This document shows positions 3,929-64,000 of a stretch of 64,000 nt of DNA, piece by piece; positions within the stretch are counted from its first letter, which is position 1, and every line of letters begins with the position of its first letter. The stretch lies in the IMG/VR virus record IMGVR_UViG_3300027963_005142. One strand, 5' to 3'. The notes below the pieces were generated by a model. That model did not search any database, was not told the origin of the DNA, and saw nothing but the letters and a program-made list of their open reading frames with translations. Origin of the DNA: an uncultured virus (IMG/VR IMGVR_UViG_3300027963_005142) (Duplodnaviria > Heunggongvirae > Uroviricota > Caudoviricetes). The translations under genes and the position numbers were made by a program.

Positions 3929-3950
3929 TATTGGCGATAAGTAGATATGC

Positions 3951-11767: not shown

Positions 11768-11802
11768 CTTGATGTCTAGCTTAGTTATGCCTAGGAGACA
11801 AA

Positions 11803-12492: not shown

Positions 12493-12493
12493 G

Positions 12494-13801: not shown

Positions 13802-13811
13802 GAGTGAACTT

Positions 13812-15974: not shown

Positions 15975-16485
15975 CTTTGTCTTGGGTCTGGATGTCTCTA
16001 CTTCTTGCGTTGGAATTTGTGTAATGGACCAAGCAGGGAGCGTTGTTTGTCTCGACAATGTTGATCTTTCTAAGATCAAGTCTTTCAATGAAAAGTGTGA
16101 CGCTGTTCAGAAAAGTCTCTCTCGGTTTTCTGGAAAGATAAAGCAGTTCTACATTGAAGAGTGCGCGAAGGCATTTAGACCTGGCCTCTCTTCGGCTAAC
16201 ACGTTAACGACTCTCTCGAGGTTCAACGGAGCAGTTTCTTGCATCTGCCACATTCTTTTTGGCGGCGACGAGAACTTAGTCAATCCTGTTGTCGCAAGAA
16301 GGTCAGCCGGAATCTTAATCAACTACAAGGATAAGTCCACTACCACCAAGGATAAGATCTATGAAGCTGTATCTTCTAGAGTTGAATTTGACTGGCCTAG
16401 GACAAAGACAGGAAAGGTCAAACCTCAGTGCTATGACATGGCTGATGCATACGTTGTTGCTTCTTTTGGCTTGAAAAACCAGTAA
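15964..16485 (+). CDS. ruvC: RuvC-like Holliday junction resolvase
   Basis: LGLDVSTSCVG, FYIEE and DMADA carry the RNase H-fold acidic residues typical of RuvC. Confidence 0.8.
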   Translation: MTSDFVLGLDVSTSCVGICVMDQAGSVVCLDNVDLSKIKSFNEKCDAVQKSLSRFSGKIKQFYIEECAKAFRPGLSSANTLTTLSRFNGAVSCICHILFGGDENLVNPVVARRSAGILINYKDKSTTTKDKIYEAVSSRVEFDWPRTKTGKVKPQCYDMADAYVVASFGLKNQ

Positions 16486-38500: not shown

Positions 38501-38592
38501 TGAATGTTAGGATTATTATCATCCCGACACGTGCTGTTGAGTACATCGTCATAGACTTCATCATCAACAACACGGGCGTCCAGTTCGTATGA
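35524..38592 (+). CDS. Tail sheath protein, copy 1
   Basis: FPGFFDREID N-terminus; PWFAPAGFNR, INPI, FGQKTL, DRVNVRRL and VCDESNNT sheath motifs. Confidence 0.92.
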   Translation: MAEITFKFPGFFDREIDQSAVSETISGTPAGLVGTSHKGQAFIPTLVGSEATFRSKFGTTSGDKTTSELAAQQFFRSGTALRFVRVLGAGGNTTSTDVAVTNQKGTVKGAGFVITGAPNTDGRHIGSVQFIAAKHSVAASSDAATPYFTDNDSFGLSSGTGNANVVRAVLLLASGTCARVMSYSDSFSETNISDDAATPSTDKLFKLVISSSSPGFYTDEGFTGIKIFTASLDPDSDKYVAKILNTVPSRFEEEEHLLYLHFPVEDTVASVSTDANSIAILSGSVNTSQASGDQSLSFRDAFGRYDTRFSNARTPVFISQPFGATEYNLFNFETIDDGKESSSLYKVSIINLRKSTDPTSPFGSFSVQVRDFYDSDLAPVILEQYDNCNLNPESPSYIAALIGDAKSFFNFDSASPTERRINNLGRYPNRSSRIRVVMNDAVENRIVPGEALPFGFRGVSVVKTSDALADDASRPITGGSAAARRLTGVGSVSGLISSIVPPIPHRFKVTRNAINASQAFVGDASDTEAVDSRLYWGVKFERSPALSLFGSAYFPNAITTPNEAIANHAKFMGIQKLDTLVTGSQADTFNNNKFTLARVALPNALNGRTPDVAISDITGSADDHMLDAAYFRNANPAYGTLTVRDPINTSVRMTLGTLVALTSSDYFNKFSGYNKFSTFFYGGFDGTNILDRDLGALNDRACSSEGDGKAKSSLNIGLRGFTVGSGLSNAYVNSYNVAADLITNKTDSDVNIICVPGIKEPAVTDYFGAATADYQLAIYLMDIPSYDDQGSRIYGTTTPNVQNTISRFSSRTINNSHVAAYYPDVSVVDADTGSRVRTAASSVALGALAQNDALSNPWFAPAGFNRTALSNVASTTCRLNSTDRDDLYDARINPIVRFPGTGFVIFGQKTLQSTKSALDRVNVRRLLIALKRDIGDVASRFLFEQNDAASRANFVSAATPVLLNVQTQQGIQQFRVVCDESNNTQTDVLNNVMNVRIIIIPTRAVEYIVIDFIINNTGVQFV

Positions 38593-38613
38593 TATTTAGA
38601 ATCGGAGCAATAA

Positions 38614-49221: not shown

Positions 49222-52196
49222 TGGCGGGAAAGCTTTCAAACTCTGATCCCCTCATTAAGTCTATCGAGCTCCTAAAGCAGGAAGCACGGATACTCAATGC
49301 AGTCTATCGCCCGCAGGTTTCTAGCATACAATTCAATGATGTTGAAATAGTCGGACTACCCGAGGTGGCTGGAAACAAGATAGATGTCTCTAAGTTCTGC
49401 ACTGCTGAGCTTGGATCGAGGTACATTGACCTCTTTATAGGAAACGAAAGAGAGCCTAAGACTACCGGAGACATCATAGAGGAGATGGAAAAGATCACCT
49501 ATGCAGATGCTCAGGTGATCAAAGGCGGCACTTCTCCTGGCCGCGCTCTAATTTTTGTTTCTTCAAATATTGAAACAAAGGGAGATGTACAGAAAGAAGC
49601 TGAAGGGAATCCCGTTAGGATCAAGTTTAGTTCTCCGATATTCTCTAGAGAGGGCGTTAGTTTTCAGCAATATACATGCGGAACTTATTTTCCGCCGGAA
49701 ATTCCAGGACAGGTAGGCAGCATTAGAGTTGGACCAAATCCTCTTGATAGAAAACCTACTGCTAAGAGTATTGAAAAATTTAACAAGCCGGGTGCTACTC
49801 TTTTTTCTCACAGATTTGATGTTGACAATAAGGGGTTCACTGGGATGAACTTTTCACTTATTGATGCAGACATCCTGCATGCATTTTTGAATGGACTTCC
49901 AACACTTGAGCTTTCTCGGGCAGTCACCTTTTTTAGAGCTTCATTCTACTCACCTGCGATACAGAAAAAGACCAAATCTGGAAACCAGTCTTCTCCTCCT
50001 GTAACTCTTGCATCTTTTTTAGGGTTGGACACAGGTACTTTGCAACGTACTTACGGGTCTCCGAGCGCAGCTGATCTAACCCGTCTTGCAGTTGGATACT
50101 CTCCTTTCTTAAAAGAAAAGACCCTGTCTCGCACTGGTTTTGAGCTCTTCTTAGGACCACAAACTCTTGTAAATCCAGATATCAACAGATCTCCTCCGGG
50201 TACTTTTTCAAACAGAAACTTTCCTGTCTTGGACCCGATGGTGCCTCTTGCGTCAATCGATTCATTTCGTATCACCATCCAGAACTCACCCGTAGCTGCT
50301 TTCACCACTCAGGTTGCAGAGCTCAAGATTATCGTCCACGACAAGTCTCGGCTCGAAGAGCTTTCAAGCATCATTGCAATTCAAGATTTTCCCTCTAACT
50401 TTATCGAGATCGAATACGGATACAATCATCCTGACTCAGATCCTGTCAGGGGCTCAGCTGCTGGAAGATTTATTAATCTGATGAAGATGCGCCAGGTCTT
50501 CACAGTTGCAGGCTACGCGATGAATGTAAAAGATAGATCTGTCGAGGTCAACCTGCGACTTGTTTCTCTCACAGATAGAGCTCTTTCTGCTGTGCCATGC
50601 ATAACTGGGAATTTTATCCCTATCAGAGCTGTCACTCAGTACCTTGAAAATCTCTCCAAGGCGACCTTTTCAAGCGTTCTTGGCAAAGAAGTGCTCCAGT
50701 TTGATCCAAAGTCCACAGCCGGACTGATGGTCCCGAGGAGCAATTTTGTTGAGCTCGTCAATGCAATCAAGAGCATAGGAACGATAGAAGACAATCAGAC
50801 TGGAGAGCCTGTTATCAATGAGGAAATAGATCAGGCAGTTGAAAATCTTCGTATAGCCATTGAGACCAATACTCAGAGACCAGAAAATACCAATCCTGCT
50901 GCAGAGCAGACGCGAATAATTGACTCCTGTAAAGCTTTCAATATTGGCGGAACTCAAGGCTCAGATCCGTTCTTTGAAGAGCTCGCTGGTGCAAACAAGG
51001 AGAGCATCAGGCAGCCTCTTAAATCGGGAAACTTCTGTACTGCTGCTCAGCTAATCTCTCGTCTTGTTCTTTACCCGCTTGCTAGCTCTACCATCTTCGA
51101 CGAAGTCCAGATTCACACGTTCTCCTTTAACGAAAGAGCTGCAAAGCTTTCAAAGCTTCCAATAGCAATGTGCCCGATCGACGTCGACTTGTTTGCAAGA
51201 AGCCTCACAAAAACCACAAATCCTAACCGCATCTACACGACAGCTGAGATGCTTGGTAAGATTGTTAAATTCTGCTCCAATCCATACAACATAGCGTTCG
51301 GAGTTAGCGATCAGTTCAAGAAGATCAAGGATGCCCGAGACGCTGCAGAAAAAGCAAGAAAAGAAGAAGAATCTGAAGAAGGAGAAGAAGAGGGACCACC
51401 TCCGCCGACTCCTGCTGAAAAAACAGCTCGATCAGCACTTACAGACAGGTTGAAGCTCATCTACAAGGAAGTTTACGGAACAGATGCCACCAACGACGAG
51501 GCTGTGTTTAAGGTTCCTCGAGTAAGATCTGAAGTTCAATCACTCAAAAAACAGATAGAAGACGAAGATGGTGTAAGAGAAATCAACATCTGCAAAATCA
51601 TCATCTACGATGAAGCATGCTCATCGATCGGAGACCTTTCTTCTATTCTTGGCGTGGCTGCAGAGGAGATGGTATCGAATCCAGGCACAAAGTCTGCTGA
51701 ATTCAACCTAAACAAGGCGAAAGACATTAGAGTTGTTAGAGAGATCCTAAGTAGACTCTATCCAGTTTTAACTCCCGGAACGGGAAATTCAGTTGTAAGC
51801 TCTGTCTCAGTGGCAACCTCAACCTCAGGTCAGGCTGCCCAGGTGCAACTCGTTGAGGCACTAAAGGGTGTCTATGGCGCGGAGCAGGACTCCATGCCCG
51901 ATTCTGCTGGATCCGACATTGAGGTAATACCTGCAAAGATCTCTTTTACATCAATTGGATGCCCAATCATAAGCAGAGGACAGAGTGTTTTTGTCAACCT
52001 CAAGACAGGAACAACGCTCGACAACGTCTACTCAGTCTCATCAGTTTCTCACAGCATAGACTCAAGAGGTAGCTTTACAACGTCAGTCTCTCTTGCGCCT
52101 ACCAGCAGCGGAACTGTAAGGGGCGTGTCTACAAAGATCGAGAGAGCTATCAAGCAGTTTGTAGATTCAAAATCCTATGGCATTGAAGATCGATAG
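49221..52196 (+). CDS. Putative baseplate hub protein (gp27/late control D-like)
   Basis: IEYGY and C-terminal GCPIISRGQ...YSVSSVSHSI...FTTSVSL; follows the LysM-like gene. Confidence 0.6.
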   Translation: MAGKLSNSDPLIKSIELLKQEARILNAVYRPQVSSIQFNDVEIVGLPEVAGNKIDVSKFCTAELGSRYIDLFIGNEREPKTTGDIIEEMEKITYADAQVIKGGTSPGRALIFVSSNIETKGDVQKEAEGNPVRIKFSSPIFSREGVSFQQYTCGTYFPPEIPGQVGSIRVGPNPLDRKPTAKSIEKFNKPGATLFSHRFDVDNKGFTGMNFSLIDADILHAFLNGLPTLELSRAVTFFRASFYSPAIQKKTKSGNQSSPPVTLASFLGLDTGTLQRTYGSPSAADLTRLAVGYSPFLKEKTLSRTGFELFLGPQTLVNPDINRSPPGTFSNRNFPVLDPMVPLASIDSFRITIQNSPVAAFTTQVAELKIIVHDKSRLEELSSIIAIQDFPSNFIEIEYGYNHPDSDPVRGSAAGRFINLMKMRQVFTVAGYAMNVKDRSVEVNLRLVSLTDRALSAVPCITGNFIPIRAVTQYLENLSKATFSSVLGKEVLQFDPKSTAGLMVPRSNFVELVNAIKSIGTIEDNQTGEPVINEEIDQAVENLRIAIETNTQRPENTNPAAEQTRIIDSCKAFNIGGTQGSDPFFEELAGANKESIRQPLKSGNFCTAAQLISRLVLYPLASSTIFDEVQIHTFSFNERAAKLSKLPIAMCPIDVDLFARSLTKTTNPNRIYTTAEMLGKIVKFCSNPYNIAFGVSDQFKKIKDARDAAEKARKEEESEEGEEEGPPPPTPAEKTARSALTDRLKLIYKEVYGTDATNDEAVFKVPRVRSEVQSLKKQIEDEDGVREINICKIIIYDEACSSIGDLSSILGVAAEEMVSNPGTKSAEFNLNKAKDIRVVREILSRLYPVLTPGTGNSVVSSVSVATSTSGQAAQVQLVEALKGVYGAEQDSMPDSAGSDIEVIPAKISFTSIGCPIISRGQSVFVNLKTGTTLDNVYSVSSVSHSIDSRGSFTTSVSLAPTSSGTVRGVSTKIERAIKQFVDSKSYGIEDR

Positions 52197-52211
52197 TGCT
52201 CTTGATATGAT
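52183..52211 (+). promoter_or_regulatory. Sigma70-like promoter with extended -10, probably leaderless
   Basis: TTGAAG-17 nt-TATGAT with TG before the -10, ending 5 nt before the GTG at 52217. Confidence 0.65.
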
Positions 52212-52216
52212 CATTC

Positions 52217-53362
52217 GTGCTCAAAATAAGCAAAGAGATTCTTGGAACAAAATCAAGCTTCTTGATCAAGGATGACGGATCTGTCTGTCTCTCTGATCTC
52301 TCTATGGAAGATGCTTGGACAGTCGGTTTCCATCAGAACTACAAGTCTGTTGAGATCGCCTGCCGAGCACTCGGAATTGAAATGCCTGAGATCGTCGCAG
52401 AAGAAGCTAATAAGTTCTGGTCAACTTGGAAAGTGAGGCCACCAGCTTCCGCTGTTATGTCTCACAGCGAGCTTCTGGAAAAAATCAAGACGCTGAATAG
52501 CTGGTTCTCAGCGCAGTTCTCTGCGTATTGTGACAGCTCCTACTTCTGTAACGACTTTCAGTCGATCCTCTTGCTGTTGGACAGGCTTGAACCTGCGCTG
52601 TTAGACAGTGATTTCGTGAGAGCTTGTGATGATGAAAGGATCTCGTCACTGTCAGGCTCAAAGAGCGCTTCTTGCACCTACGATCCATGCAGCTCCTCTA
52701 CGGGTAGACTTACTGTAAAGTCTGGATTTCCAATCTTAACACTGCCAAGAGAGCTTCGAAAGTCTCTCAAGTCTCGTCATGGAAAGATTCTGCAAATTGA
52801 CTTCACAGCTCTCGAGCCTCACACGCTTCGGTGCTTTGCTGGCAGACTCTCAGGCGAAGAAGACATCTACACAGACATTAGTCGAGGATTTGACCTTGAA
52901 AGAGATATCGTAAAAGTTGCAGTTATGTCTGCTTGTTACGGAATGTCGAGAAACTCTTTCAGGTCAAAGTACAGGTCGGTTTCAGGTGCTGCAGGATTCT
53001 ACGATTCAATCCGAAAAGGTCTCGGAGTCGAAGAACTTGAGAGCTACATTGCTCGAAGCTGCGTTATCTCTACTGGCATTACAAATGGTTTCGGCAGGCC
53101 CATTCAGTGTGATCCTGCCGCGTGGGTATCACACTTTGTGCAATCAACTGCTGTGGATGTTGCTTGCCAGGGATTCAACGATGTCATCGATAGGCTCGCT
53201 GAGTCTCGAGCAAGGTTCAGTCCTCTCTTCTTGATCCACGATTCTCTTGTTGTCGATGTGAATGTTGAACACATGAGTGCGCTTAATAGAATTGTTGAAG
53301 AAGGTTTTCTTCTCAAGAGTAAGAACTACAAATTCCCAATGAAGATCAAGGAGCTTTACTAA
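52217..53362 (+). CDS. Minimal family-A DNA polymerase domain protein
   Basis: TGRL, motif A DFTALE, motif B RxxxKxxxMxxxYG, VQSTAVD, motif C IHDS; only 381 aa. Confidence 0.8.
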   Translation: MLKISKEILGTKSSFLIKDDGSVCLSDLSMEDAWTVGFHQNYKSVEIACRALGIEMPEIVAEEANKFWSTWKVRPPASAVMSHSELLEKIKTLNSWFSAQFSAYCDSSYFCNDFQSILLLLDRLEPALLDSDFVRACDDERISSLSGSKSASCTYDPCSSSTGRLTVKSGFPILTLPRELRKSLKSRHGKILQIDFTALEPHTLRCFAGRLSGEEDIYTDISRGFDLERDIVKVAVMSACYGMSRNSFRSKYRSVSGAAGFYDSIRKGLGVEELESYIARSCVISTGITNGFGRPIQCDPAAWVSHFVQSTAVDVACQGFNDVIDRLAESRARFSPLFLIHDSLVVDVNVEHMSALNRIVEEGFLLKSKNYKFPMKIKELY

Positions 53363-53928
53363 TGCAAGACATTGAAAAAGTCTATAATTCCTACATGAAA
53401 CTTGTCAATTTGCTTGATGCGCGGTCAGGCGCTATTAAGCGGCTAGTTGATCACTTTGGAGAGCGGTTTGCCACCTGTCCTGCTTTTGACAGAAGTGAGC
53501 GCTCTACAGCATCTCCGGGAGGAATGATGCTTCACAGCATCAACGTTACAAAGACCATGAAGACTGTTGCAGAATCTTCTGGATTGAAGATTCCAATACA
53601 GTCGATAATCATGTGCGGTCTTGTTCATGAGTTTGGTCGGCTAGGAGACCTGAGTAACGACTACTACGTCGAGCAGAAGTCTGATTGGCACAGAGAGCGA
53701 GGCAATATCTACACCTACAATCCTGAGTGTGTGAAGATGACTCACGGACATCGGACGCTGTGGATCTTGCAGCAGTTTGGAGTCGAGCTTACACCTGAAG
53801 AGTGGTTAGCTGTCGCTTCTTTGAGCTTCTACTCTGAAGAGCAGCGATTCTACGCAGGATACGAGGGTGACCTCGCAGCTCTGCTGCAGTACGCAGACAG
53901 GATAGTGACTGCGCAAGAACGAGTCTAA
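53362..53928 (+). CDS. HD-domain-like phosphohydrolase (HE variant)
   Basis: GGMMLHS...GLVHEFGRLG...H...LLQYAD, a YhaM-like layout. Confidence 0.7.
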   Translation: MQDIEKVYNSYMKLVNLLDARSGAIKRLVDHFGERFATCPAFDRSERSTASPGGMMLHSINVTKTMKTVAESSGLKIPIQSIIMCGLVHEFGRLGDLSNDYYVEQKSDWHRERGNIYTYNPECVKMTHGHRTLWILQQFGVELTPEEWLAVASLSFYSEEQRFYAGYEGDLAALLQYADRIVTAQERV

Positions 53929-53941
53929 GATATTTACATTA

Positions 53942-54514
53942 GTGGCAAATCAAGAAAAAGCATCAGCAATTGGACACTACTCTAGCAGGGGTAGAGCTAT
54001 TCCGTGGTCGGGAGCGCTCGGCGGCGGTGATGGCGCGCAGCAGAAGATTGGACGTCCAAGGCTTCCGGGAAAGATTCAAGCATCTCCAACAGGCGCTGCT
54101 GACAGCACTTTTGCCGGAAGGATGTCTCTACTGGTTCCCGACTACGAGCAACAGCTCGCTTACGATGAGGTAGGTGAGTTTGTCGGCATGCCTGACTACA
54201 AGTCCAACATAGAGAACATAGCGACACGCAAGCTTGCAGGTCCGAGGAAGCTTCCAAGAGGTTTCAAGCTGCGTCTCACAGAGGACTCTGGTGATGGATT
54301 TGAAGATTTTCTGCATGTTGAGGACCTGCTCGAAGAGATTGCTCCTAAAAAGAAGAAGTTTAAGAAAGAAGCATCAGGTGTCGGAGCCGTCGCAGGCTAC
54401 ACGGGTCCAGTATCAGGTCCCTCGAATCCCAAGAGCTTTTACAGCAAGATGGCGAAGGCCGCAGGAGGTGAGTATCTAGAGGATCCAACAAAGACTGCTC
54501 GCGGGCGTCCGTAA
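53942..54514 (+). CDS. Hypothetical protein, possibly late/head-internal
   Basis: GTG start 5 nt after TATTTA; L-x-E sites; EASGVGAVAGY. Confidence 0.55.
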   Translation: MANQEKASAIGHYSSRGRAIPWSGALGGGDGAQQKIGRPRLPGKIQASPTGAADSTFAGRMSLLVPDYEQQLAYDEVGEFVGMPDYKSNIENIATRKLAGPRKLPRGFKLRLTEDSGDGFEDFLHVEDLLEEIAPKKKKFKKEASGVGAVAGYTGPVSGPSNPKSFYSKMAKAAGGEYLEDPTKTARGRP

Positions 54515-54609
54515 AACTTTTGAACAACTACCACTTTAAACGTTAAATCATACTAGCTCTAAACATCACACCGAAGTTAAGAGTTACCACAAAGGAAAAC
54601 AAACTAATC

Positions 54610-55422
54610 ATGACCATTAATTTTGACGCACTTAAGAAGAAACTAGATAATCTCTCCGGTAACAACAAGAAGAGCAACGCTTCCTGGAAGCCCAAGGAAG
54701 GCGAGGAATACACGGTCCGCCTCCTCTCGTTCCCGAACAACGACGGCCAGCCCTTCAAGGAGCTCTGGTTCTACTACAACATTGGCAGCAACCCTGGTCT
54801 CCTCGCACCCTACCAGTACGGACAGCAGGATCCGATTCAGGATCTAATCCGCAAGCTGAAGGATGATGCATCCAAGGAGTCCTACGAGCTCGCCAAGAAG
54901 CTCTACCCGAAGATGCGTTGCTACGCTCCGGTCATCGTTCGCGGTGAGGAGGACAAGGGCGTCCAGCTCTGGGCGTTCGGCAAGCAGGTCTACCAGTCGC
55001 TCCTCGCGATCATGCTTGACGAGGACTACGGTGATATTACCGATCCTGAGTCCGGCCGAGATGTGAAGGTTCGTTGCTTCAAGCCCAATGGCAAGAAGTA
55101 CACTGAGACTGAGGTCATGCCGCGAGGAAAGGCTTCTCCTCTCAGCCCGAACACTGGGTCCGCAAAGCAGTGGCTAGGAAATATTCCAGACGTCTCCAAG
55201 ATGTTTGAGCTCAAGTCTGCAGATGAGCTCAGCAAGATCGTCAACGACTGGATCAATAGCGGAATGCCTGACGGCAGCGATGGAACTCAGAAGGGTGGAA
55301 GCGGCAGTTATAGCTCTGCACAGAGCGACAGCGAAGAGACTCCTACGCCTCGCAAGAAGCCTTCTGGAAGTGACAACTTTAGATCGATCGATGATGCTTT
55401 CGCTGATCTTATCGAAAGCTAA
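54610..55422 (+). CDS. Single-stranded DNA-binding protein (T4 gp32-like)
   Basis: WKP...VRLL, WAFGKQVY, DITDPESGRD and an acidic tail ending IDDAFADL; C-ending codon bias. Confidence 0.85.
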   Translation: MTINFDALKKKLDNLSGNNKKSNASWKPKEGEEYTVRLLSFPNNDGQPFKELWFYYNIGSNPGLLAPYQYGQQDPIQDLIRKLKDDASKESYELAKKLYPKMRCYAPVIVRGEEDKGVQLWAFGKQVYQSLLAIMLDEDYGDITDPESGRDVKVRCFKPNGKKYTETEVMPRGKASPLSPNTGSAKQWLGNIPDVSKMFELKSADELSKIVNDWINSGMPDGSDGTQKGGSGSYSSAQSDSEETPTPRKKPSGSDNFRSIDDAFADLIES

Positions 55423-55439
55423 TCGATAGATTGACCAAT

Positions 55440-55479
55440 CGAGGTAAGGGTTGTAATGTTGACCCTTACCTCGTATAGT
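55440..55479 (+). promoter_or_regulatory. 12-bp inverted repeat overlapping a sigma70-like promoter of recA
   Basis: CGAGGTAAGGGT (55440-55451) / ACCCTTACCTCG (55462-55473); TTGTAA-17 nt-TATAGT (55451-55479). Confidence 0.7.
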
Positions 55480-55495
55480 ATCAGACAGGAGAAAC

Positions 55496-56623
55496 ATGAC
55501 AAAAGTTAGAGATGATGACTTTACATCAGAGCTGATAAAGTCCTTAAACAAGGAGCACGGCTCCAAGATAGCCTATAACCTCACTGAAGACGCTTCACCT
55601 ACTCACGTTAAGCGGTGGATCTCTACTGGCTCTGCGCTTCTTGACTACATCGTCTCGAACAGGAAGGGCGGCGGCCTGCCAGAAGGAAGAATTGTTGAGA
55701 TCTTCGGGCCGCCGTCGATTGGAAAGTCTCACATTGCTACACAGATCGCTCGGTCAACTCAGCAGATGGGAGGCATTGTTGTCTACATCGACACAGAGAA
55801 TGCAACCTCAGTAGAGAACCTTCACGCACTTGGTGTTGACGTCTCTAGACGATTTGTCTATGTTGACACTCACTGCACAGAGGAAGTCTTTGATGTAGCT
55901 GAGAAGACCATCATGAAGGCAAAAGCGATGGCGAAAGACGTCCCGATCACAATCATCTGGGACTCTGTCGCGGCAAGCTCACCCAAGGCCGAGCTCAACG
56001 GAGAGTACGACAAAGACACTATCGGCCTTCAAGCTCGCGCAATCTCGAAGGGCATGCGCAAGATCACTGGTGTCATCGGTGATCAATCAGTTCTGATGAT
56101 CTGCCTCAACCAGATTCGCACGAAGATAGGCGTTCTCCACGGTGATCCAACCACGACACCGGGCGGCATGGCGATCCCGTTCCACTCCTCAGTGAGACTT
56201 AAGTTAGGAGCTGGTCAGCACATCCAGAATAAAGACGGAGACATCATCGGCATCAATGTCTCAGCAAAGACCGTCAAGAACAAGGTAGGACCACCGTTCA
56301 GGACTGTCAACTTCCAGATCCACTTCGGCAAGGGAATTGTTGAGCACGAGGAGATCTTTGATGTGCTTCGTGAAGCAGGCGAGAGACAGATTGGAAACAA
56401 GATGGTCTGCGTCTCAGGAACCACGGCATGGAAAGTGTTCACTGTGACAGACCTTGATAAGGGTGCAACGATCATTGAGAAGAAGTTTCACAAAGCTGAG
56501 TTCGGAGAACTTCTTCGAAATCCTGAGTACAAGACCTACCTTGACAACCTGATCGAGACAGTCATGGTCAGGACAGGGTCTGCGTCGATTACGACCGAGG
56601 AAGAAGAGGAGTCTGATGAGTGA
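55496..56623 (+). CDS. recA: RecA/UvsX recombinase
   Basis: ISTGS..LD, GLPEGRIVEIFGPPSIGKS, YIDTE, IWDSVAA, NQIR and TTPGG. Confidence 0.93.
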   Translation: MTKVRDDDFTSELIKSLNKEHGSKIAYNLTEDASPTHVKRWISTGSALLDYIVSNRKGGGLPEGRIVEIFGPPSIGKSHIATQIARSTQQMGGIVVYIDTENATSVENLHALGVDVSRRFVYVDTHCTEEVFDVAEKTIMKAKAMAKDVPITIIWDSVAASSPKAELNGEYDKDTIGLQARAISKGMRKITGVIGDQSVLMICLNQIRTKIGVLHGDPTTTPGGMAIPFHSSVRLKLGAGQHIQNKDGDIIGINVSAKTVKNKVGPPFRTVNFQIHFGKGIVEHEEIFDVLREAGERQIGNKMVCVSGTTAWKVFTVTDLDKGATIIEKKFHKAEFGELLRNPEYKTYLDNLIETVMVRTGSASITTEEEEESDE

Positions 56624-57584
56624 TCTATCCCGCAGGACTGTTCTTCTTGTTGATGGCATGGGAACATTCCTGCGGCATTTTGTCGCCAATCCAGCTGTGT
56701 CGACAAACGGTGATCACATCGGCGGGGTGATTGGAACTATGAACGAGATCCGATCACTCTGCGACCGCTTTCGACCTCGTAGAATCTACGTTGTATGGGA
56801 GAGCGGCGGCTCACCTCGCCGTCGCGCCATCTTTCCAGATTACAAGTCTAATAGAAAGGCTGCAAAGCTTAACAGATTCTATTCAGACGACATACCGCAG
56901 ACTGTTGGCGGTCGAGACAGCCAGGTGAAGATGCTTGTGTCGCTTCTCAAGCATTCACCCATAGTTCAGCTGTATGTCCCAGATTGCGAAGCTGATGATG
57001 TGATCGGCTACGTTTCCAGGTACCACCACAAGGAAGAGCTGAAGGTCATTCTAAGCCCAGACCACGACTACTATCAGTTGATATCTGAGGGCTCGATGGT
57101 ATGGTCTCCTACTTGGAAGAAGATGGTTGAAGAGTCGGGAGTCCTTGAGAAGTACGGAGTCCACCCTAACAACTTTGCACTTGCAAAATCTGTGTGCGGG
57201 GATCAGTCTGACTGCATACCGGGCGTCGAGGGTGTAGGTTTTAAGACGCTTGCAAAGAAGTTCCCAGAGCTATCACAGGCTGCGACGGTGATGGTGTCTG
57301 ACTTCATGCGTCAAGCTCGATCTCTGTCTGAGTCGGGAGACAAGACAAAGTGCGTCCGAAGCATCATCGAGTCAGAAGAGATTATCCACAGAAACTGGAG
57401 TCTGGTCTACCTTGACACTGCTAACTTGTCAGGAAGTCAGATCACAAGAGTTGAGGGGATCATTGAACAAGCTAGCCCCCAGAGGCGTAAAATAGAATTC
57501 ATTCGAACTATGATCTCGCTCGGGATCCAAACATTTGACGCTGACAGATTCTTTAATTCAATGACACAAGTTGAGACAAAATGA
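56616..57584 (+). CDS. 5'-3' exonuclease/flap endonuclease (T4 RNase H-like)
   Basis: LLVDG, YKSNR, EADDVIG, SPDHDYYQL and GDQSDCIPGVEGVG. Confidence 0.9.
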   Translation: MSDLSRRTVLLVDGMGTFLRHFVANPAVSTNGDHIGGVIGTMNEIRSLCDRFRPRRIYVVWESGGSPRRRAIFPDYKSNRKAAKLNRFYSDDIPQTVGGRDSQVKMLVSLLKHSPIVQLYVPDCEADDVIGYVSRYHHKEELKVILSPDHDYYQLISEGSMVWSPTWKKMVEESGVLEKYGVHPNNFALAKSVCGDQSDCIPGVEGVGFKTLAKKFPELSQAATVMVSDFMRQARSLSESGDKTKCVRSIIESEEIIHRNWSLVYLDTANLSGSQITRVEGIIEQASPQRRKIEFIRTMISLGIQTFDADRFFNSMTQVETK

Positions 57585-58960
57585 ATATTGAACCGACTCA
57601 CCACTTCAAGCAGTACGGCAAGCAGTTCCAGGAGAAGATCTTCCAGGCACTTCTGACGGATAGAAACTGGTCAACTCAGATGACTGAGATTATGGCTCCT
57701 AGCTTCTTTGATCTGAAGTACTTGGAATTTTTGACTGACAGGTACTTTACCTACTATGCGAAGTACAAAGACTTTCCGACTCTGCCGCTTTTGATTACGA
57801 TCATCAGAGACGAGCTGAAGGAAGGCAAGGACACAATTCTAAGAGATCAGATTGTTGACTTCCTGCAGCGAATCCGGGTCAACCCTGACGTTGGAGACCT
57901 ATCCTACGTCAAGGACAAGTCTCTTGACTTCTGCAGGAAGCAGGCAATGAAGGAAGCTCTTGAGAAGGCAGTTGAGCTCATTGCAACTGACAATATTGAC
58001 TCTGTCATGAGCTTGATGAAGAATGCACTGTCTGCAGGAACGCCTGCATCAATTGGGCACGACTTCTTTGAAGATGCCGAAGCTCGTTTCGTCAGGACAA
58101 GAAGAGTTCCATGCCCTACTGGAATCACTGCAATTGATGCACCCGGAGTCTTGAACGGTGGCCTCGGGCGCGGCGAACTCGGCGTTGCAGTTGGAAATAC
58201 AGGAACTGGAAAGTCTCACTTCTTGGTCTCTGTTGGTGCTGAGGCGCTTCGCCTCGGAAAGAATGTTGTTCATTACACCTTCGAGCTCAGCGAATCTGCA
58301 GTCGGACTCAGGTACGATTCTAACTTCTGCAAGATTCCAAGCAACGAAATTATCGACAGAAAGAGTGAGGTCCTAGACTTCTACAAGAACGCTACACTCG
58401 GTCGCTTGATCATCAAGGAATACCCGACAGGTTCAGCTTCTGTGCAGACTCTTCGTAACCACATCGAAAAACTTCTACTTAAGTCGTTTGTTCCAAGTGT
58501 CATCATCATCGACTATGCTGACATTATGCGGTCTTCTAGAAAGATGGACTCGCTTCGTCACGAGTTGAAGCTTATTTATGAAGAGCTTCGTAATCTAGCG
58601 ATGGAAATGAACGTCCCGATCTGGACAGCATCTCAGGCAAACAGAGATGCTTCTAACTCAGATATCGTCGGTCTTGAAAACATGTCTGAAGCCTACGGGA
58701 AAGCCATGGTTGCTGACGTAGTCCTTTCGATCTCAAGAAAGCCGATCGAGAAGTCTTCGGGAATTGGAAGAATGTTCGTTGCCAAAAACAGAGCAGGTCG
58801 TGATGGTATTCTCTTCCCCATCAGGATCGATACGTCGATGTCTGTCTTCGAAACACTCTCAGACTCTTCTGAGATGTCTCTGGATGAAGTTATCAAGTCC
58901 ACTAAAACGAATGCAAAGGACTTGCTAAGACAGAAGTGGAAAGAGGTTAACGGAAACTAA
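57581..58960 (+). CDS. Replicative DNA helicase (DnaB/T4 gp41-like)
   Basis: GNTGTGKS Walker A, TFE, IIIDYAD, WTASQANR and KNRAG. Confidence 0.92.
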   Translation: MNIEPTHHFKQYGKQFQEKIFQALLTDRNWSTQMTEIMAPSFFDLKYLEFLTDRYFTYYAKYKDFPTLPLLITIIRDELKEGKDTILRDQIVDFLQRIRVNPDVGDLSYVKDKSLDFCRKQAMKEALEKAVELIATDNIDSVMSLMKNALSAGTPASIGHDFFEDAEARFVRTRRVPCPTGITAIDAPGVLNGGLGRGELGVAVGNTGTGKSHFLVSVGAEALRLGKNVVHYTFELSESAVGLRYDSNFCKIPSNEIIDRKSEVLDFYKNATLGRLIIKEYPTGSASVQTLRNHIEKLLLKSFVPSVIIIDYADIMRSSRKMDSLRHELKLIYEELRNLAMEMNVPIWTASQANRDASNSDIVGLENMSEAYGKAMVADVVLSISRKPIEKSSGIGRMFVAKNRAGRDGILFPIRIDTSMSVFETLSDSSEMSLDEVIKSTKTNAKDLLRQKWKEVNGN

Positions 58961-58984
58961 TTTCTGTGTATCAGGAGTATTACC

Positions 58985-61462
58985 ATGTCACATAGTCCCT
59001 TATTGCTCGAGTATTTTGGCGGCGACGACCTCGCCTGCGATGTCTTTACGAAGTATGCGCTTCACAACAAGAGCGGCGAACGTCTAGAGTTCATGCCCGA
59101 CGAGATGCACTTGCGACTCGCGAAGGAGTTCGCTAGGATCGAGTCAAAGTATCCAAACCCCCTGTCGCAAGACGAGATCTTCGACATGCTAGATAAGTTT
59201 CAGCAAGTCGTCCCGCAAGGATCTCCAATGTCAGGTATTGGGAACCCCTACCAGCTACAGTCTCTGTCAAACTGCTTTGTCATCGACCAGCCTCATGACT
59301 CTTACGCAGGGATCCTCTTCTCTGACCAGGAGCAGGTGCAGATCATGAAGCGCCGCGGTGGTGTTGGATTGGATGTGTCGAACATCAGGCCAAAGGGACA
59401 ACCTACCACCAATGCTGCCCGCACAACTGACGGTATCGGCGTCTTCATGGAGCGCTTCAGCAACTCCACACGTGAGGTTGCACAAGGCGGCCGCCGCGGC
59501 GCTCTGATGATTACTATCGATTGTCGTCACCCAGAGATCGAGACATTCATCGACATCAAGCGTGACCTCAAAAAGGTGACAGGAGCGAACATCTCGATCC
59601 GCTTCACTGATGAGTTCATGCAGGCTGTAGAGGGTGAGAAGGACTTCCTGCTTCGGTGGCCCGTGGAGGCTCACCCGGAGGAAGCTGAGATCTGCAAGAC
59701 AGTCAACGCGAAGCAGGTCTGGAACAAGTTCATCGATGCCGCATGGTCTTCTGCCGAGCCCGGGGCTCTCTTCTGGGACACTGTAGTTGACCAGGGAATC
59801 GTTGACCGCTACCGTGACGTCGGTTACAAGACAATCTCTACCAATCCCTGCGGTGAGATCCCCCTCAGCCCATACGACTCCTGTCGACTGATGGTTGTTA
59901 ACCTTACCTCGTTTGTGATCGATCCGTTTACTGATCATGCAAGATTTGATTTTTCAAACTTTAACTCCGTAGTCATGAAGGCTCAGCGTCTCATGGACGA
60001 CCTCGTGGACCTTGAGGTCGAGTGCGTTGATAGGATTCTTGAGAAGATTCAGAACGATCCAGAGCCTGACAGCGTGAAGATGATTGAGAAGACACTCTGG
60101 ACAAAGATTAGAGCGGCAGGTCTCAATGGTCGTCGCACTGGTCTCGGAGTCACAGGTCTTGGCGACTGTCTTGCAGCTCTAGGTGTTCGTTATGGAGATA
60201 AGCGCTCTATTGACGTCACCGAGGAGATCTACAAGGCCCTCGCCGTCGGAGCTCACCGTTCTTCGATCGTTCTTGCCAAGGAGCGCGGTGCCTTCCCAGT
60301 GTGGGACTACGAGAAGGAGAAGGATCACACCTACCTCAAGAAGGTGATCTCCTCTTGCAACGGTGAGTACTACGAGATGTGGAAGAACACAGGTCGTCGC
60401 AACATTGCTCTCACCACCACAGCACCCGTCGGTTCAGTCTCCTGTCTCACGCAGACCACTTCGGGAATTGAGCCTGCCTTCCTTCTCTCGTACAAGCGCC
60501 GCCGCAAGATTACCGGTAGTGATATCTCTGCTAGAGTCGACTATGTTGACCCAATGGGAGACAAGTGGCAGGAGTACACTGTCTACCATCACTGGTTCAA
60601 GAAGTGGATGGACGTCACCGGTAAGACCGATCCACAGGAGAGCCCGTACTGGGGTGGTACCGCCAACGATATCGACTGGGAGAGATCAGTTGACATCCAG
60701 GCTGCAGCACAAGCCTGGGTTGACCATTCAATATCTAAGACCTGTAACCTTCCTAATTCTGCTACGAGAGAGACAGTTAACTCTGTCTACATGAAAGCCT
60801 GGAAGACAGGATGTAAGGGCTTTACAGTCTATCGAGACGGTTGTCGCACCGGAGTTCTTGTCGCAGACACTCCTAAGCAGGAAGACAAGCCAAAGAGCGC
60901 CGGTGACTTCCATCCCAAGCGTCCAAAGGAGCTACCTTGCGACATTCACAGAGTTAATGTGAAAGATGATACAGGTGTCACGCAGTCTTGGATGGTCCTC
61001 GTAGGCTTAAATGACGGAATGCCATACGAGGTCTTCAGTGGTCTTGCTGAGCATATTGAAGTTCCAAAGAAGACCAAAGCAGGGACCTTGATCAAGAATG
61101 GCAAGAAGGAGGGCATAGCGACCTACAATCTTAGAGTTCCCATCGGTAACGACGATGAGATCCTCTTCAAAGACGTCGTTAACCTCTTTGCAAACCCGAC
61201 GCAAGGTGCTTTCACTAGGACAATCTCTCTTGCTCTTCGCCACGGTATCCCGGTCAACTTTGTAGTTGATCAGCTCCAGAAGGATAAAGACTCAGACATG
61301 TTTGCCTTTGCACGTTGCATTGCCAGAGTTCTGAAGGGCTACATTCCCGACGGAACAAAGTCAACAAACGAGAAGAAGTGCAAAGACTGTGGAAGCGACC
61401 AGGTGTTCTACCAGGAGGGTTGCGTTACGTGTAGTGCTTGCGGCTCTAGCAAGTGTAGCTAG
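58985..61462 (+). CDS. nrdJ: Class II (B12-dependent) ribonucleotide reductase with C-terminal Zn ribbon
   Basis: SNCF, TNPCGE, SCRL, GRRTGLG, APVG, SKTCN and YRDG; C-terminal CxxC/CxxC; no beta subunit adjacent. Confidence 0.88.
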   Translation: MSHSPLLLEYFGGDDLACDVFTKYALHNKSGERLEFMPDEMHLRLAKEFARIESKYPNPLSQDEIFDMLDKFQQVVPQGSPMSGIGNPYQLQSLSNCFVIDQPHDSYAGILFSDQEQVQIMKRRGGVGLDVSNIRPKGQPTTNAARTTDGIGVFMERFSNSTREVAQGGRRGALMITIDCRHPEIETFIDIKRDLKKVTGANISIRFTDEFMQAVEGEKDFLLRWPVEAHPEEAEICKTVNAKQVWNKFIDAAWSSAEPGALFWDTVVDQGIVDRYRDVGYKTISTNPCGEIPLSPYDSCRLMVVNLTSFVIDPFTDHARFDFSNFNSVVMKAQRLMDDLVDLEVECVDRILEKIQNDPEPDSVKMIEKTLWTKIRAAGLNGRRTGLGVTGLGDCLAALGVRYGDKRSIDVTEEIYKALAVGAHRSSIVLAKERGAFPVWDYEKEKDHTYLKKVISSCNGEYYEMWKNTGRRNIALTTTAPVGSVSCLTQTTSGIEPAFLLSYKRRRKITGSDISARVDYVDPMGDKWQEYTVYHHWFKKWMDVTGKTDPQESPYWGGTANDIDWERSVDIQAAAQAWVDHSISKTCNLPNSATRETVNSVYMKAWKTGCKGFTVYRDGCRTGVLVADTPKQEDKPKSAGDFHPKRPKELPCDIHRVNVKDDTGVTQSWMVLVGLNDGMPYEVFSGLAEHIEVPKKTKAGTLIKNGKKEGIATYNLRVPIGNDDEILFKDVVNLFANPTQGAFTRTISLALRHGIPVNFVVDQLQKDKDSDMFAFARCIARVLKGYIPDGTKSTNEKKCKDCGSDQVFYQEGCVTCSACGSSKCS

Positions 61463-61465
61463 TTC

Positions 61466-61494
61466 TTAAAAAATTGAACTCACTTGAGTATAGT
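61466..61494 (+). promoter_or_regulatory. Sigma70-like promoter, probably leaderless
   Basis: TTAAAA-17 nt-TATAGT, ending 5 nt before the ATG at 61500. Confidence 0.55.
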
Positions 61495-61499
61495 AATTC

Positions 61500-62102
61500 A
61501 TGAACATCATCACACGCGTTTCTCCCCTTATCAAGGAGTGCGAGCTTCGGGCCGCACCTATCATCATCCGCGTCAACAAGTTTGACGAAGATTCTGCAAA
61601 GGAGTTTGCACAGCAGATGTCGATGGCCCAGTCTTCTGGGCAGGGAATCATCCCGATTGTTATTGATAGCTACGGTGGCCAGGTCTACTCTCTGATGACC
61701 ATGATCGATGCGATCAAGGCTTCTCGAGTTCCAGTTGCTACCATTGTTGAAGGAAAGGCTATGAGCTGCGGTGCAGTTCTTCTAACCTGTGGTGCTGAGG
61801 GGATGCGATTTGCAGGACCAAATGCCACCATCATGATCCACGAGGTTTCGACTGGTAGCTTTGGAAAGGTTGAGGAGATCAAGACTGATGCAAAGGAAGT
61901 TGATCGACTCAATGACAAGATCTTGAAGATCATGGCAAAGAACATTGGAAAGGACGAAGATTACTTCCTCGAAGAGATCCACCACAAGAAGCACGCTGAC
62001 TGGTTCATCGAGCCAGAGGAGGCAAAGGAGATGAACATGGTTAACCACATCAAGGTTCCAGAGATGATGCTAACAGTGGACGTCAAGTACAAGTTTGAAT
62101 AG
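61500..62102 (+). CDS. clpP: ClpP-like protease subunit
   Basis: IDSYGGQV, AMSCGA (Ser), IMIHE (His) and DWF..PEEA (Asp). Confidence 0.88.
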   Translation: MNIITRVSPLIKECELRAAPIIIRVNKFDEDSAKEFAQQMSMAQSSGQGIIPIVIDSYGGQVYSLMTMIDAIKASRVPVATIVEGKAMSCGAVLLTCGAEGMRFAGPNATIMIHEVSTGSFGKVEEIKTDAKEVDRLNDKILKIMAKNIGKDEDYFLEEIHHKKHADWFIEPEEAKEMNMVNHIKVPEMMLTVDVKYKFE

Positions 62103-62442
62103 AAAGCTAGAGCTCCTAATAAAAGTCATGGCATGGAGAGCTTTCTCCATGTGCTATGGATTTTGCATAGCTTTCTTCTTCACTAGAAATGCTGCAGATT
62201 CAATCGGAATAGTCCTAATAACTGGGACTACTTTGACTTTTCTGCAGTGGGGATTTGAAATAATCTGGGACAAATACTTCAGGGAGAATCTCAGACATGC
62301 CCTTTCAAGACAACAAGGTAGAATTGGTTGGATGGTATGGTTCAGACGAAGTCCACGCACTGTCAGCATGGACAAGTACGAACAGAGATCTAACAGAGGA
62401 GAAGAGAGTGAGAATTCCTCAGCTTCTCAAGATGCTGGCTGA
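62095..62442 (+). CDS. Small two-helix membrane protein (DUF2061-like)
   Basis: K...WR, two hydrophobic stretches and FE..W; 3' end overlaps thyX by 146 nt. Confidence 0.5.
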   Translation: MNRKLELLIKVMAWRAFSMCYGFCIAFFFTRNAADSIGIVLITGTTLTFLQWGFEIIWDKYFRENLRHALSRQQGRIGWMVWFRRSPRTVSMDKYEQRSNRGEESENSSASQDAG

Positions 62443-62929
62443 GAACGGCCACGAGACTCCGTTCGAGAAGAGCTCTCTTCACTTCCTGGTTACAGTCGAT
62501 ACAGCTACTCACGTGCATCTTCTCAAGCATCGCATCGGAGTCTCAGTTAACGGTGAGTCGGCTCGCTATAAAGAGCTTAAGGACGACAAGTACTACCTTC
62601 CAAAGGACTGGCCACTTGAGGATCAGGCGCACTACATTGCATTCATGGAAGATGCTATCATGCGCTACCACGATGCACTTGAGCGGCTCGTAGAGAACGG
62701 CATGAACCGCAAGCGAGCGAAAGAGTCAGCTCGATTCTATTTGCCTTATGGCAACCAGATCACGATGGATGTGATGTTCAACTGGCGCTCTTTCAACCAC
62801 TTCCTCAGCCTTCGCATGAAGCCCGATGCACAGAAGGAAGTTCGAGATCTTGCAGAGCAGATGCTAGATCTGGTTAGAAGTATTCCGCATCATCCGTTCA
62901 AGCACACGATCGAAGCTTTTGGTATTTAG
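62297..62929 (+). CDS. thyX: FAD-dependent thymidylate synthase
   Basis: GHETPFE, KHRIGVSVNGESARY (RHRx7S variant), ESARFYLP, NWRS and AQKEVR. Confidence 0.92.
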   Translation: MPFQDNKVELVGWYGSDEVHALSAWTSTNRDLTEEKRVRIPQLLKMLAENGHETPFEKSSLHFLVTVDTATHVHLLKHRIGVSVNGESARYKELKDDKYYLPKDWPLEDQAHYIAFMEDAIMRYHDALERLVENGMNRKRAKESARFYLPYGNQITMDVMFNWRSFNHFLSLRMKPDAQKEVRDLAEQMLDLVRSIPHHPFKHTIEAFGI

Positions 62930-62930
62930 C

Positions 62931-62959
62931 TTGTAAATTAAGACTTGTTCGATTACAAT
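62931..62959 (+). promoter_or_regulatory. Sigma70-like promoter, probably leaderless
   Basis: TTGTAA-17 nt-TACAAT, ending 5 nt before the GTG at 62965. Confidence 0.65.
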
Positions 62960-62964
62960 CTTTC

Positions 62965-63381
62965 GTGATCGCACCTAAGTCACCATACAACCTGATCCAA
63001 GAGACAGTTCAACACGATCCGTGGAGAGTTCTAGTTGTCTGTATTTTCTGCAATCTGACTCGCAGAGTAGTTGCAGAGCCTTACATGTGGAAGTTCTTTG
63101 AACGCTGGCCGACAGCAGAGAGTGCTGCTCACGCCAATGCAGAAGAGATCAGAGACCTAATTGCTGACCTCGGCCTCTCAGACCGTCGTAGCAAAACGCT
63201 AGTAAAGCTGTCTCAAGCTTTCGTGAACTGGGACGGCAATGATGTAAGATCTCTACCCGGCGTTGGAGATTACGCAGGAGCTGCTTACGACATCTTCTGC
63301 TTGCACAAGTGGGATGACATTCCAGAGCCTAAAGACGGTGCACTTAAGAACTACTGGAAGTGGATCAACAACAAAGAGTAA
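62965..63381 (+). CDS. MBD4-like HhH-GPD DNA glycosylase
   Basis: SPYNLIQE...HDPW...IFCN.T, LPGVGDY helix-hairpin-helix, Y.IFC and PKD..L..Y..W. Confidence 0.85.
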   Translation: MIAPKSPYNLIQETVQHDPWRVLVVCIFCNLTRRVVAEPYMWKFFERWPTAESAAHANAEEIRDLIADLGLSDRRSKTLVKLSQAFVNWDGNDVRSLPGVGDYAGAAYDIFCLHKWDDIPEPKDGALKNYWKWINNKE

Positions 63382-63388
63382 GCTAGGT

Positions 63389-63417
63389 TTAAAATACGGA
63401 TGTTCTCATCACACAAT
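63389..63417 (+). promoter_or_regulatory. Possible sigma70-like promoter for the Fpg gene
   Basis: TTAAAA-17 nt-CACAAT. Confidence 0.4.
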
Positions 63418-63462
63418 ACTAAAACTTGTTCGGAATGGCTTTAAAGCCTAAAGGAGGATACC

Positions 63463-64000
63463 ATCCCAGAAGGCCCCGAGGTTAGAATTGTTACAGATTC
63501 TTTGGCAAAGTCAATTGCGGGAATGACAATTGTGTCGATTGAAGTTCTTTCTGGAAGATACGTGCGACACGGAGATCCTGACGGGCTAGATGATTTTTCT
63601 AGCGTGATTCCGGCTACAGTTGACGCTGTAGCCTGCAAGGGCAAGTTCATCTACTTCAAGGTGGGCAACTGGTTCATCTGGAACACACTGGGGATGACCG
63701 GAGGCTGGAGCCGAGGCCCGCAGAAGCACAGCAGGGTGCGTTTCACTTTCTCCGACGGAAGCAAGCTACACTTCAACGACGCTAGAAACTTTGGAACACT
63801 AAAGTTTGTCAGAGGAGAAGAAGAGCTACACCAGAAGCTTCAGTCTCTAGGTCCTGACATGCTCGCAGAAGATGTCAAAGACGACATCTTCGAGCAGCGC
63901 GTAGGGAATCTAAAGGGTACAATCGCAGAGGGACTGATGAATCAGTCAGTCGTCTGCGGCGTTGGAAACTATCTGAAGTCCGAGTCGCTCTACTTCGCTC
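63463..64000 (+). CDS. mutM: Fpg/MutM (Fpg/Nei family) DNA glycosylase, 3'-truncated, ATC start
   Basis: Not in the ORF track. Translates PEGPEV...KGKF...LGMTG...FNDARNFG...LGPD...MNQSVVCGVGNYLKSESL. AAGGAGG at 63451-63457. Confidence 0.88.
   Translation, partial: MPEGPEVRIVTDSLAKSIAGMTIVSIEVLSGRYVRHGDPDGLDDFSSVIPATVDAVACKGKFIYFKVGNWFIWNTLGMTGGWSRGPQKHSRVRFTFSDGSKLHFNDARNFGTLKFVRGEEELHQKLQSLGPDMLAEDVKDDIFEQRVGNLKGTIAEGLMNQSVVCGVGNYLKSESLYFA

Follow-up and report, generated by a model that had tools for sequence, protein, structure and literature searches.

A probable ATC start codon in a phage fpg gene and the recurrence of weak start codons among its relatives

The fpg gene at the end of the 64,000-nt stretch of uncultured virus DNA analyzed here (the window; IMG/VR IMGVR_UViG_3300027963_005142) raises the question of where its translation begins, as the codon in front of the catalytic proline is ATC. 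Fpg/Nei enzymes need a free N-terminal proline, and initiation at AUC is lower and sensitive to IF3. An earlier note on this DNA had proposed that the gene can start only at this ATC as a deliberate down-tuning of a DNA-cleaving enzyme, with a recent ATG>ATC mutation or a sequencing error as the alternative.

The fpg gene and its start site

The window belongs to a large (jumbo) phage. Its T4-like genes, for terminase, portal, capsid, two sheaths, and gp32, are followed by those for RecA, DnaB, ribonucleotide reductase, Clp protease, ThyX, and an HhH-GPD glycosylase. Freshwater is the source given in the records of the runs containing this phage. No isolate is close, the nearest sharing ~41% terminase identity, and positions 52000-64000 of the window lie outside the nearest virus record (G001). 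The tandem tail-sheath genes (35524-41541) encode 1022 and 975 aa. The major capsid protein (653 aa, 29326-31287) is matched by isolates in two pieces, which suggests an insertion, and eleven long ORFs (173-1002 aa) in 37-16485 have no Pfam match at E 0.001.

By its domains, the window gene is an intact Fpg/Nei glycosylase/AP lyase with predicted activity. Fapy_DNA_glyco (PF01149) matches from the proline onward (profile position 2 of 117, E 4e-20; 72.9 bits against a cut-off of 25.5), and H2TH (PF06831) reaches 32.7 bits on the partial CDS of the window, just under its cut-off of 34.7; both domains are precomputed for full-length homologs. In the near-identical IMG/VR contig L001, the full-length protein has 266 aa from the proline and no four-cysteine finger. 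The best PDB match is 3a45 (E 4e-45, residues 1-265), which, with 3a42, we take to be Mimivirus Nei1 with its zincless finger. This best solved relative has the same PEGPEV N-terminus, with a Met at position 1 of the chain; unlike it, the window Fpg is a bacteriophage gene adjoining an HhH-GPD glycosylase. The N-terminal Pro-Glu, the conserved GK lysine, and the finger arginine are all present, and P1, E2, K60, and R256, the last presumably the finger Arg with a catalytic role, are invariant in an alignment of 44 sequences (A3) and align with 3a45. The available text of PMC11323726 describes catalytic roles of the Pro, Glu, and Lys of Fpg/Nei.

The arrangement described earlier, a Shine-Dalgarno (SD) sequence, five nucleotides, ATC, and PEGPEV, agrees with the sequence in coordinates and letters (Table 1). 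The codons after ATC are CCA GAA GGC CCC GAG GTT, and the frame reads *SLKEDTI-PEGPEV, its stop closing a 14-codon in-frame ORF that begins at ATG 63400 without an evident SD. In-frame reading bears out the absence of ATG, GTG, and TTG between this stop and the proline; the earliest canonical codon is TTG 63502, 12 codons past the proline, and none is usable at the homologous N-terminus. The SD, previously called one of the best in the window, ranks fifth among the 48 starts scored (-11.6 kcal/mol at a usable 5-nt spacing), and it is the only one of four AAGGAGG copies on the window + strand that precedes a gene start. The claim that the start must be the codon before the proline is in line with the homologs, 155 of 156 loci having there ATG or a codon one base off ATG, which is more than chance. 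Translation very probably initiates at ATC 63463.

Table 1. Features around the fpg start in the window
Feature	Position	Strand	Basis or remark
-10-like hexamer TACAAT	62954..62959	+	5 nt before HhH-GPD start; putative leaderless-mRNA signature
HhH-GPD glycosylase gene, GTG start without SD	62965..63381	+	Pfam, SD scoring
Relic of SegE-like GIY-YIG/NUMOD3 endonuclease 3' end with SD and spacer (84 nt)	63379..63462	+	Identity to L094/L104/L012
In-frame TAA	63442..63444	+	Seven codons 5' of ATC; read from sequence
Shine-Dalgarno AAGGAGG	63451..63457	+	5 nt 5' of ATC; duplex -11.6 kcal/mol
Spacer ATACC	63458..63462	+	Fits -4T/-3A/-2Y/-1Y consensus of near-cognate homologs
Putative near-cognate start codon ATC of Fpg/Nei gene	63463..63465	+	Sequence, L001 and 4/4 runs, homologs
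Fpg/Nei-family DNA glycosylase/AP lyase CDS from catalytic Pro	63466..64000, runs off window	+	PF01149, PF06831

L001 is identical to the window over 301 nt including the ATC. Sequence support at the codon was checked in assembled contigs, which drop rare variants, rather than raw reads, and ATC was found in all four runs compared (X2, X3, X6, and X12, of 14 containing at least half of the sampled words): one contig in each spans 62900-64000 with 63463-65 unchanged, and the differences among them fall at five other positions. X2 may be the source run, and X3, X6, and X12 represent three other studies. A sequencing error at the ATC is excluded by L001 and these contigs. The RNA runs X15-X20 contain at most 0.16 of the sampled words.

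Upstream, TANNNT lies 5-6 nt 5' of the start in 23/23 HhH-GPD homologs, which are related rather than independent sequences, against a window background of 4.4%, and this suggests that HhH-GPD would be a leaderless first cistron. The same hexamer occurs 5-6 nt before the start of 6/46 window genes (starts 15964, 32435, 42095, 52217, 61500, and 62965) and of 5/13 with a weak SD; this leaderless-promoter signature may hint at the host.

Gene callers truncate such proteins and drop the active site, so these proteins may be misjudged as inactive; 9 of the 14 members of the protein's cluster are called at 244-247 aa, without the PEGPEV end. In P0102, P0112, and P0119, HhH-GPD and Fpg/Nei are called as one protein of 371-412 aa, in which the catalytic proline would be buried; the fusions may be real or may reflect overlooked internal starts. 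Another type, seen in L054 and protein P0076, has CCG before the proline and an ATG 9-12 codons upstream, and the extended N-terminus itself begins Met-Pro, with a GIY-YIG gene just 5' in L054. Such proteins are either inactive, processed, or started at CCG.

Weak start codons in phage and bacterial homologs

Alignment-based scans yielded 161 homologous loci, of which five lack the N-terminus and 156 were scored; scans of viral contigs with a single protein matched only the near-identical contig. The codon before the proline is ATG in 87 loci, TTG in 28, ATC in 18 (three of them this phage itself), GTG in 11, ATT in 8, ACG in 3, and CCG in 1. No canonical in-frame start exists back to the stop in 25 of the 29 ATC/ATT/ACG loci. 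Dereplication at 90% identity, with three short rows dropped, reduced 153 rows to 114 representatives (ATG 70, TTG 17, GTG 10, ATC 8, ATT 7, ACG 1, CCG 1), so that near-cognate codons (ATC/ATT/ACG) account for 16, scattered on the tree, and canonical codons for 97. Among the 21 representatives at ≥57% identity, ATC is found in 8 and ATG in 5, ATG being avoided in 16. At least 14 switches between near-cognate and canonical codons were counted on a quick tree without bootstrap, a count that recombination at this junction may inflate. Comparison with homologs, as suggested earlier, gave a divided answer: the near-cognate codon does recur (16/114), whereas the closest relative, L083 (95% aa identity), has ATG. 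With L083, with TTG in L135 (73%), and with canonical codons in 97/114, ATC is not indispensable. The near-cognate codon is fixed in this population, recurrent in the family, and interchangeable with canonical codons, even with ATG at 95% identity. When viral contigs were searched separately for the ATH-PEGPEV pattern, 17 of 63 matches were Fpg genes (ATT 9, ATC 8, ATA 0), some as distant as 36% identity; 8 of the 17 are on contigs counted already among the homologous loci.

The weak codons are accompanied by strong SDs. Near-cognate starts (n=16) have an average duplex energy of -12.2 kcal/mol, significantly lower than those of ATG (-7.2, n=69, p 5e-7) and of GTG/TTG (-9.7, n=27, p 0.005). 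Of 12 independent pairs, 5.8 on average show the strong SD on the side of the near-cognate codon and none on the opposite side (median p 0.031, range 0.008-0.125), and in the pattern-scan set the mean is -11.6 in the 17 Fpg genes and -4.0 in the other 46 matches. The spacer also differs: GGTGTNNN lies immediately 5' of the codon in 10/16 near-cognate and 4/96 canonical starts, and four ATG loci also have this context. Pyrimidines at both -2 and -1 are found in 14/16 near-cognate and 25/70 ATG loci, a difference not significant in the independent pairs (median p 0.125). The near-cognate consensus is (A/G)GAGGTGTACC-ATY, the window copy reading GGAGGATACC-ATC and L017 GGAGGTGTACC-ATC; an extended motif, RGGNRT, is present in 10/16 near-cognate phage loci. 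In a marine clade (L112, L114, L115, and L119), the same context precedes either ATG or ATT. Much of the weakness of the codon may be made good by the strong SD and the -3A/-2Y/-1Y context; in vitro, AUU mRNA reached 0.48-0.74 of AUG (PMC5499595, available text). A conserved hairpin of SD and start as the source of the spacer consensus was not supported: folding averages about -3 kcal/mol (-2.9 here), pairings are inconsistent, and L123 has none.

All 10 pairs sharing a near-cognate codon have dN/dS of 0.044-0.151, which indicates that fpg genes with such starts are maintained by selection, and the codons are kept across dS above 1 (L119/L123, dS 1.2; L012/L017, dS 1.6). For the window fpg and L083, dN/dS is 0.05 at dS 0.5; this value mostly predates the initiation cassette discussed below and is no proof that the window copy is still translated. 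The gene after fpg starts with ATG in 16/16 near-cognate representatives, by a control that takes the nearest canonical codon within 4 codons and so leans towards finding a canonical one. In L001, the region 3' of fpg (3798-5349) encodes a small conserved protein, a dUTPase_2-like protein, and a dUTPase_2-NT5C fusion. There the fpg stop overlaps the ATG of the first of these genes, and a weak fpg start could thereby throttle the downstream nucleotide-pool genes.

Weak starts were also found in bacterial fpg. An ATH-PELPEVE scan of genome contigs gave at least 62 Fpg by HMM among the 120 matches listed, a lower bound, 40 of those loci having short flanks. These comprise ATC 34, ATT 18, and ATA 10, at least 39 of them without an upstream in-frame canonical start, and by record title they come from Trueperaceae, Bacteriovoracaceae, Bacillota, alpha- and gammaproteobacteria, Actinomycetota, and others. 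Phylum samples were hand-counted on the motif only, which leaves codons beginning with C invisible. In the phylum of the Bacteriovoracaceae genome G002, 45/201 genomes matched (ATG 26, GTG 6, TTG 3, ATT 7, ATC 3), with ATH in 9/44 without the chosen centre. In that of Roseococcus (G004), 86/121 matched, with ATH in 0/85 randomly drawn matches apart from the centre, and in Bacillota (G003) 81/121, with ATH in 1/81 (ATA). The latter two samples refute ATH as a general start of bacterial fpg; its distribution is patchy. A GlmS-type control gave 50/50 ATG and is weak, only two of its genomes also having an Fpg match.

Loci titled Trueperaceae or Truepera have ATC before PELPEVE clade-wide, in a shared GAAGG/GAGGG context (L166, L177, L179, L185, L187, L188, L192, L201, L203, L204, L206, L212, L214, L227, and L233). 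ATT and ATC are frequent in the Bacteriovoracaceae-type fpg (L190, L211, L220, L224, L198, and genomes of the G002 phylum), and L220, with AGGTGTGTT-ATC, lies in a phage-like context.

An endonuclease relic at the start region

The stretch between HhH-GPD and the ATC is the end of an endonuclease gene. Window positions 63379-63465 are identical to L094 at 79/87 nt, to L104 at 78/87, and to L012 at 71/87, and the Fpg proteins of these loci are only 59-60% identical to that of the window (L094, 59%). An intact endonuclease gene lies between HhH-GPD and fpg in L012, L094, L102, and L104; in L012, L094, and L104 it encodes 200 aa and is followed by an SD and ATC. Its matches to SegE_GIY-YIG (E 8.5e-05) and NUMOD3 (E 4e-05) are weak, the former under the cut-off. 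The intact genes resemble the SegE-like free-standing GIY-YIG homing endonucleases of T4-type phages, whereas the window has no intact ORF with a GIY-YIG catalytic domain and keeps only the last ~70 nt, or C-terminal ~22 codons, ending at TAA 63449-63451. In L083, the relic and the intergenic stretch are absent, and ATG follows six bases after an SD at the HhH-GPD end.

The recent ATG>ATC point mutation considered earlier is unlikely, because the SD-ATC sits on a relic shared with distant relatives, the L094 lineage also using ATC. The SD-ATC cassette most likely entered by recombination together with the GIY-YIG gene end; we infer both the direction of this exchange and a role of endonuclease homing in bringing in the SD-ATC. 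The relic indicates that the initiation region can be exchanged independently of the coding sequence. All 10 loci with a long upstream endonuclease match have a non-ATG fpg start (ATC 4, TTG 5, CCG 1), and such starts are common in that clade regardless of the endonuclease. A regulatory leader RNA in the 80-nt intergenic stretch was dismissed, the sequence being the endonuclease gene end.

Two further observations concern this junction. At window position 63273, L001 and all four compared runs have C>T, synonymous in HhH-GPD, which makes an ATG in the relic frame, whose stop adjoins the fpg SD. Run X12 also holds short contigs of a relative with a loose end after window 63372, where the HhH-GPD end is joined to another spacer and then TTG-CC, a further variant of the junction.

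Possible roles of weak initiation and its precedents

The lyase activity of Fpg/Nei requires the free amine of Pro2, according to the available text of PMC11323726, and initiation must therefore take place at the codon before the proline, followed by Met removal. The strong SD would position the 30S subunit, fMet-tRNA would decode AUC in the P site, and deformylation with Met removal would expose Pro2, the Schiff-base nucleophile. AUC gave 1-2% of AUG with N-terminal Met in E. coli reporters (10.1101/063800, as excerpted), and near-cognate starts with an extended SD gave ~10% of AUG in S. aureus (PMC13009471, available text). Within the phage family, the initiation region would behave as an exchangeable cassette of SD, spacer, and start codon, one that in this genome probably arrived with the GIY-YIG gene end, ~70 nt of which are left. 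The cassette appears to settle repeatedly on a strong SD with ATC, ATT, or ACG, or on TTG or GTG, as would be expected if selection limits a strand-cutting enzyme to a modest level. We consider it likely that ATC is a functional start and that strong SD and weak codon settle together under such selection; actual initiation, low output, and the selective reason are what we infer from the comparison of homologs. Deliberate down-tuning, as the earlier note had it, or IF3 sensing is plausible.

Other readings differ in what the weak codon would mean. It may be tolerated and not favoured, a possibility that we regard as somewhat unlikely: little enzyme would be needed, any region above a low threshold could drift or recombine in, and the strong SD would merely permit the weak codon, with nothing held down or sensed. 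The frequent swapping of ATG, TTG, GTG, ATC, and ATT between close relatives, the arrival of the window cassette with an endonuclease relic, and the marine clade with one context before ATG or ATT would all fit, yet the closest representatives mostly avoid ATG (16/21), the next gene keeps ATG wherever fpg has a near-cognate start (16/16), and these codons survive dS above 1 although a single base change yields ATG. It is rather doubtful that the AUC ties Fpg synthesis to host IF3 and growth state, as in infC and pcnB, in which case a parallel response would be expected of the HhH-GPD cistron upstream, which is probably leaderless. The context of several homologs is identical to that of pcnB, the TANNNT hexamer precedes HhH-GPD in all 23 homologs, and, in the available texts, IF3 discriminates against AUU (PMC5499595) and can inhibit the translation of leaderless messages (PMC8459731). 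Against such regulation, IF3-accepted TTG, GTG, and ATG replace ATC in close relatives, and a Pfam scan of 50 window proteins turned up no IF3 gene. Both of these readings overlap with the one we prefer.

Readings that deny a start at ATC fare worse. The called proteins without PEGPEV (9/14) and the relic as a sign of recent rearrangement would suit a silent or nearly silent young pseudogene, or a truncated protein from TTG 63502 or ATG 63523; this is improbable given an intact frame in L001 and the run contigs with synonymous or conservative changes, purifying selection in the near-cognate pairs, the retention of PEGPEV, and an SD placed for ATC. An N-terminal extension cleaved before the proline is scarcely credible, whether it came from ATG 63400 with readthrough of TAA 63442 or from the out-of-frame ATG 63435 with a frameshift. 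Both ATGs are present, extensions are annotated in a few database homologs, and in L054 an ATG lies 12 codons upstream with CCG before the proline; neither ATG has an SD, however, TAA serves this phage as a normal stop elsewhere (63379-63381), near-cognate homologs vary freely in upstream sequence and stop distance, and the codon before the proline is start-like almost throughout. Readthrough or frameshift from these ATGs, lacking SD and conservation, was rejected.

To our knowledge, few natural AUC/AUU starts are well supported, and nearly all of these belong to cellular genes. The IF3 gene, infC, is autoregulated via its AUU/AUA start; an infC-like feedback loop is impossible for fpg because Fpg is not a translation factor. 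An arXiv preprint by Gvozdjak and Samanta reportedly treats genes preferring non-AUG starts. E. coli pcnB, encoding poly(A) polymerase I, has an AUU start in the annotated context GAGGTGTACT-ATT, which matches the phage consensus, and, like fpg, places a near-cognate start on an enzyme acting on nucleic acid. Its translation is limited by AUU, as cited in the available text of PMC2830850, which also gives an AUC start for D. deserti DnaA from N-terminal proteomics. In contrast to pcnB, the codon of fpg, a different gene and one of a phage, switches among ATC, ATT, ACG, TTG, GTG, and ATG between close relatives. The window fpg shares AUH-codon initiation with infC and Deinococcus dnaA, and differs in that its near-cognate codon is not fixed across the family. 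The S. aureus genes cvfC1 (AUU) and ccpN (AUA) likewise combine a weak codon with a strong or extended SD (PMC13009471, available text); these are cellular genes with Ribo-RET evidence, whereas the evidence for phage fpg is comparative. Near-cognate initiation is thus known from infC, pcnB, dnaA, and cvfC1. In a literature search covering few subscription papers, titles and the opening lines of abstracts gave no report of a near-cognate start in fpg/nei; ATH starts for mutM may already be listed in supplementary start-site tables or in RefSeq. No earlier description seems to exist of such starts in the fpg family, of the phage setting, of the recurrent switching, or of a cassette carried by an endonuclease.

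Because the catalytic proline fixes the translation start, Fpg/Nei genes reveal their start codon from DNA alone. They form a natural allelic series (ATG, GTG, TTG, ATC, ATT, and ACG) in one gene, suited to tests of how SD and upstream context rescue weak codons and of whether such codons are selected. A wider and distinctly speculative proposal, which we think unlikely, is that this phage family and several bacterial lineages (Bacteriovoracaceae, Trueperaceae, and others) independently put Fpg/Nei under AUH initiation, the phages converging on the pcnB-type GAGGTGTACY context and passing the setting on as a mobile SD-start cassette, here on a homing-endonuclease end. If true, Fpg/Nei would be a recurrent, overlooked target of start-codon control, and base-excision capacity would track the IF3 and growth state of the host.
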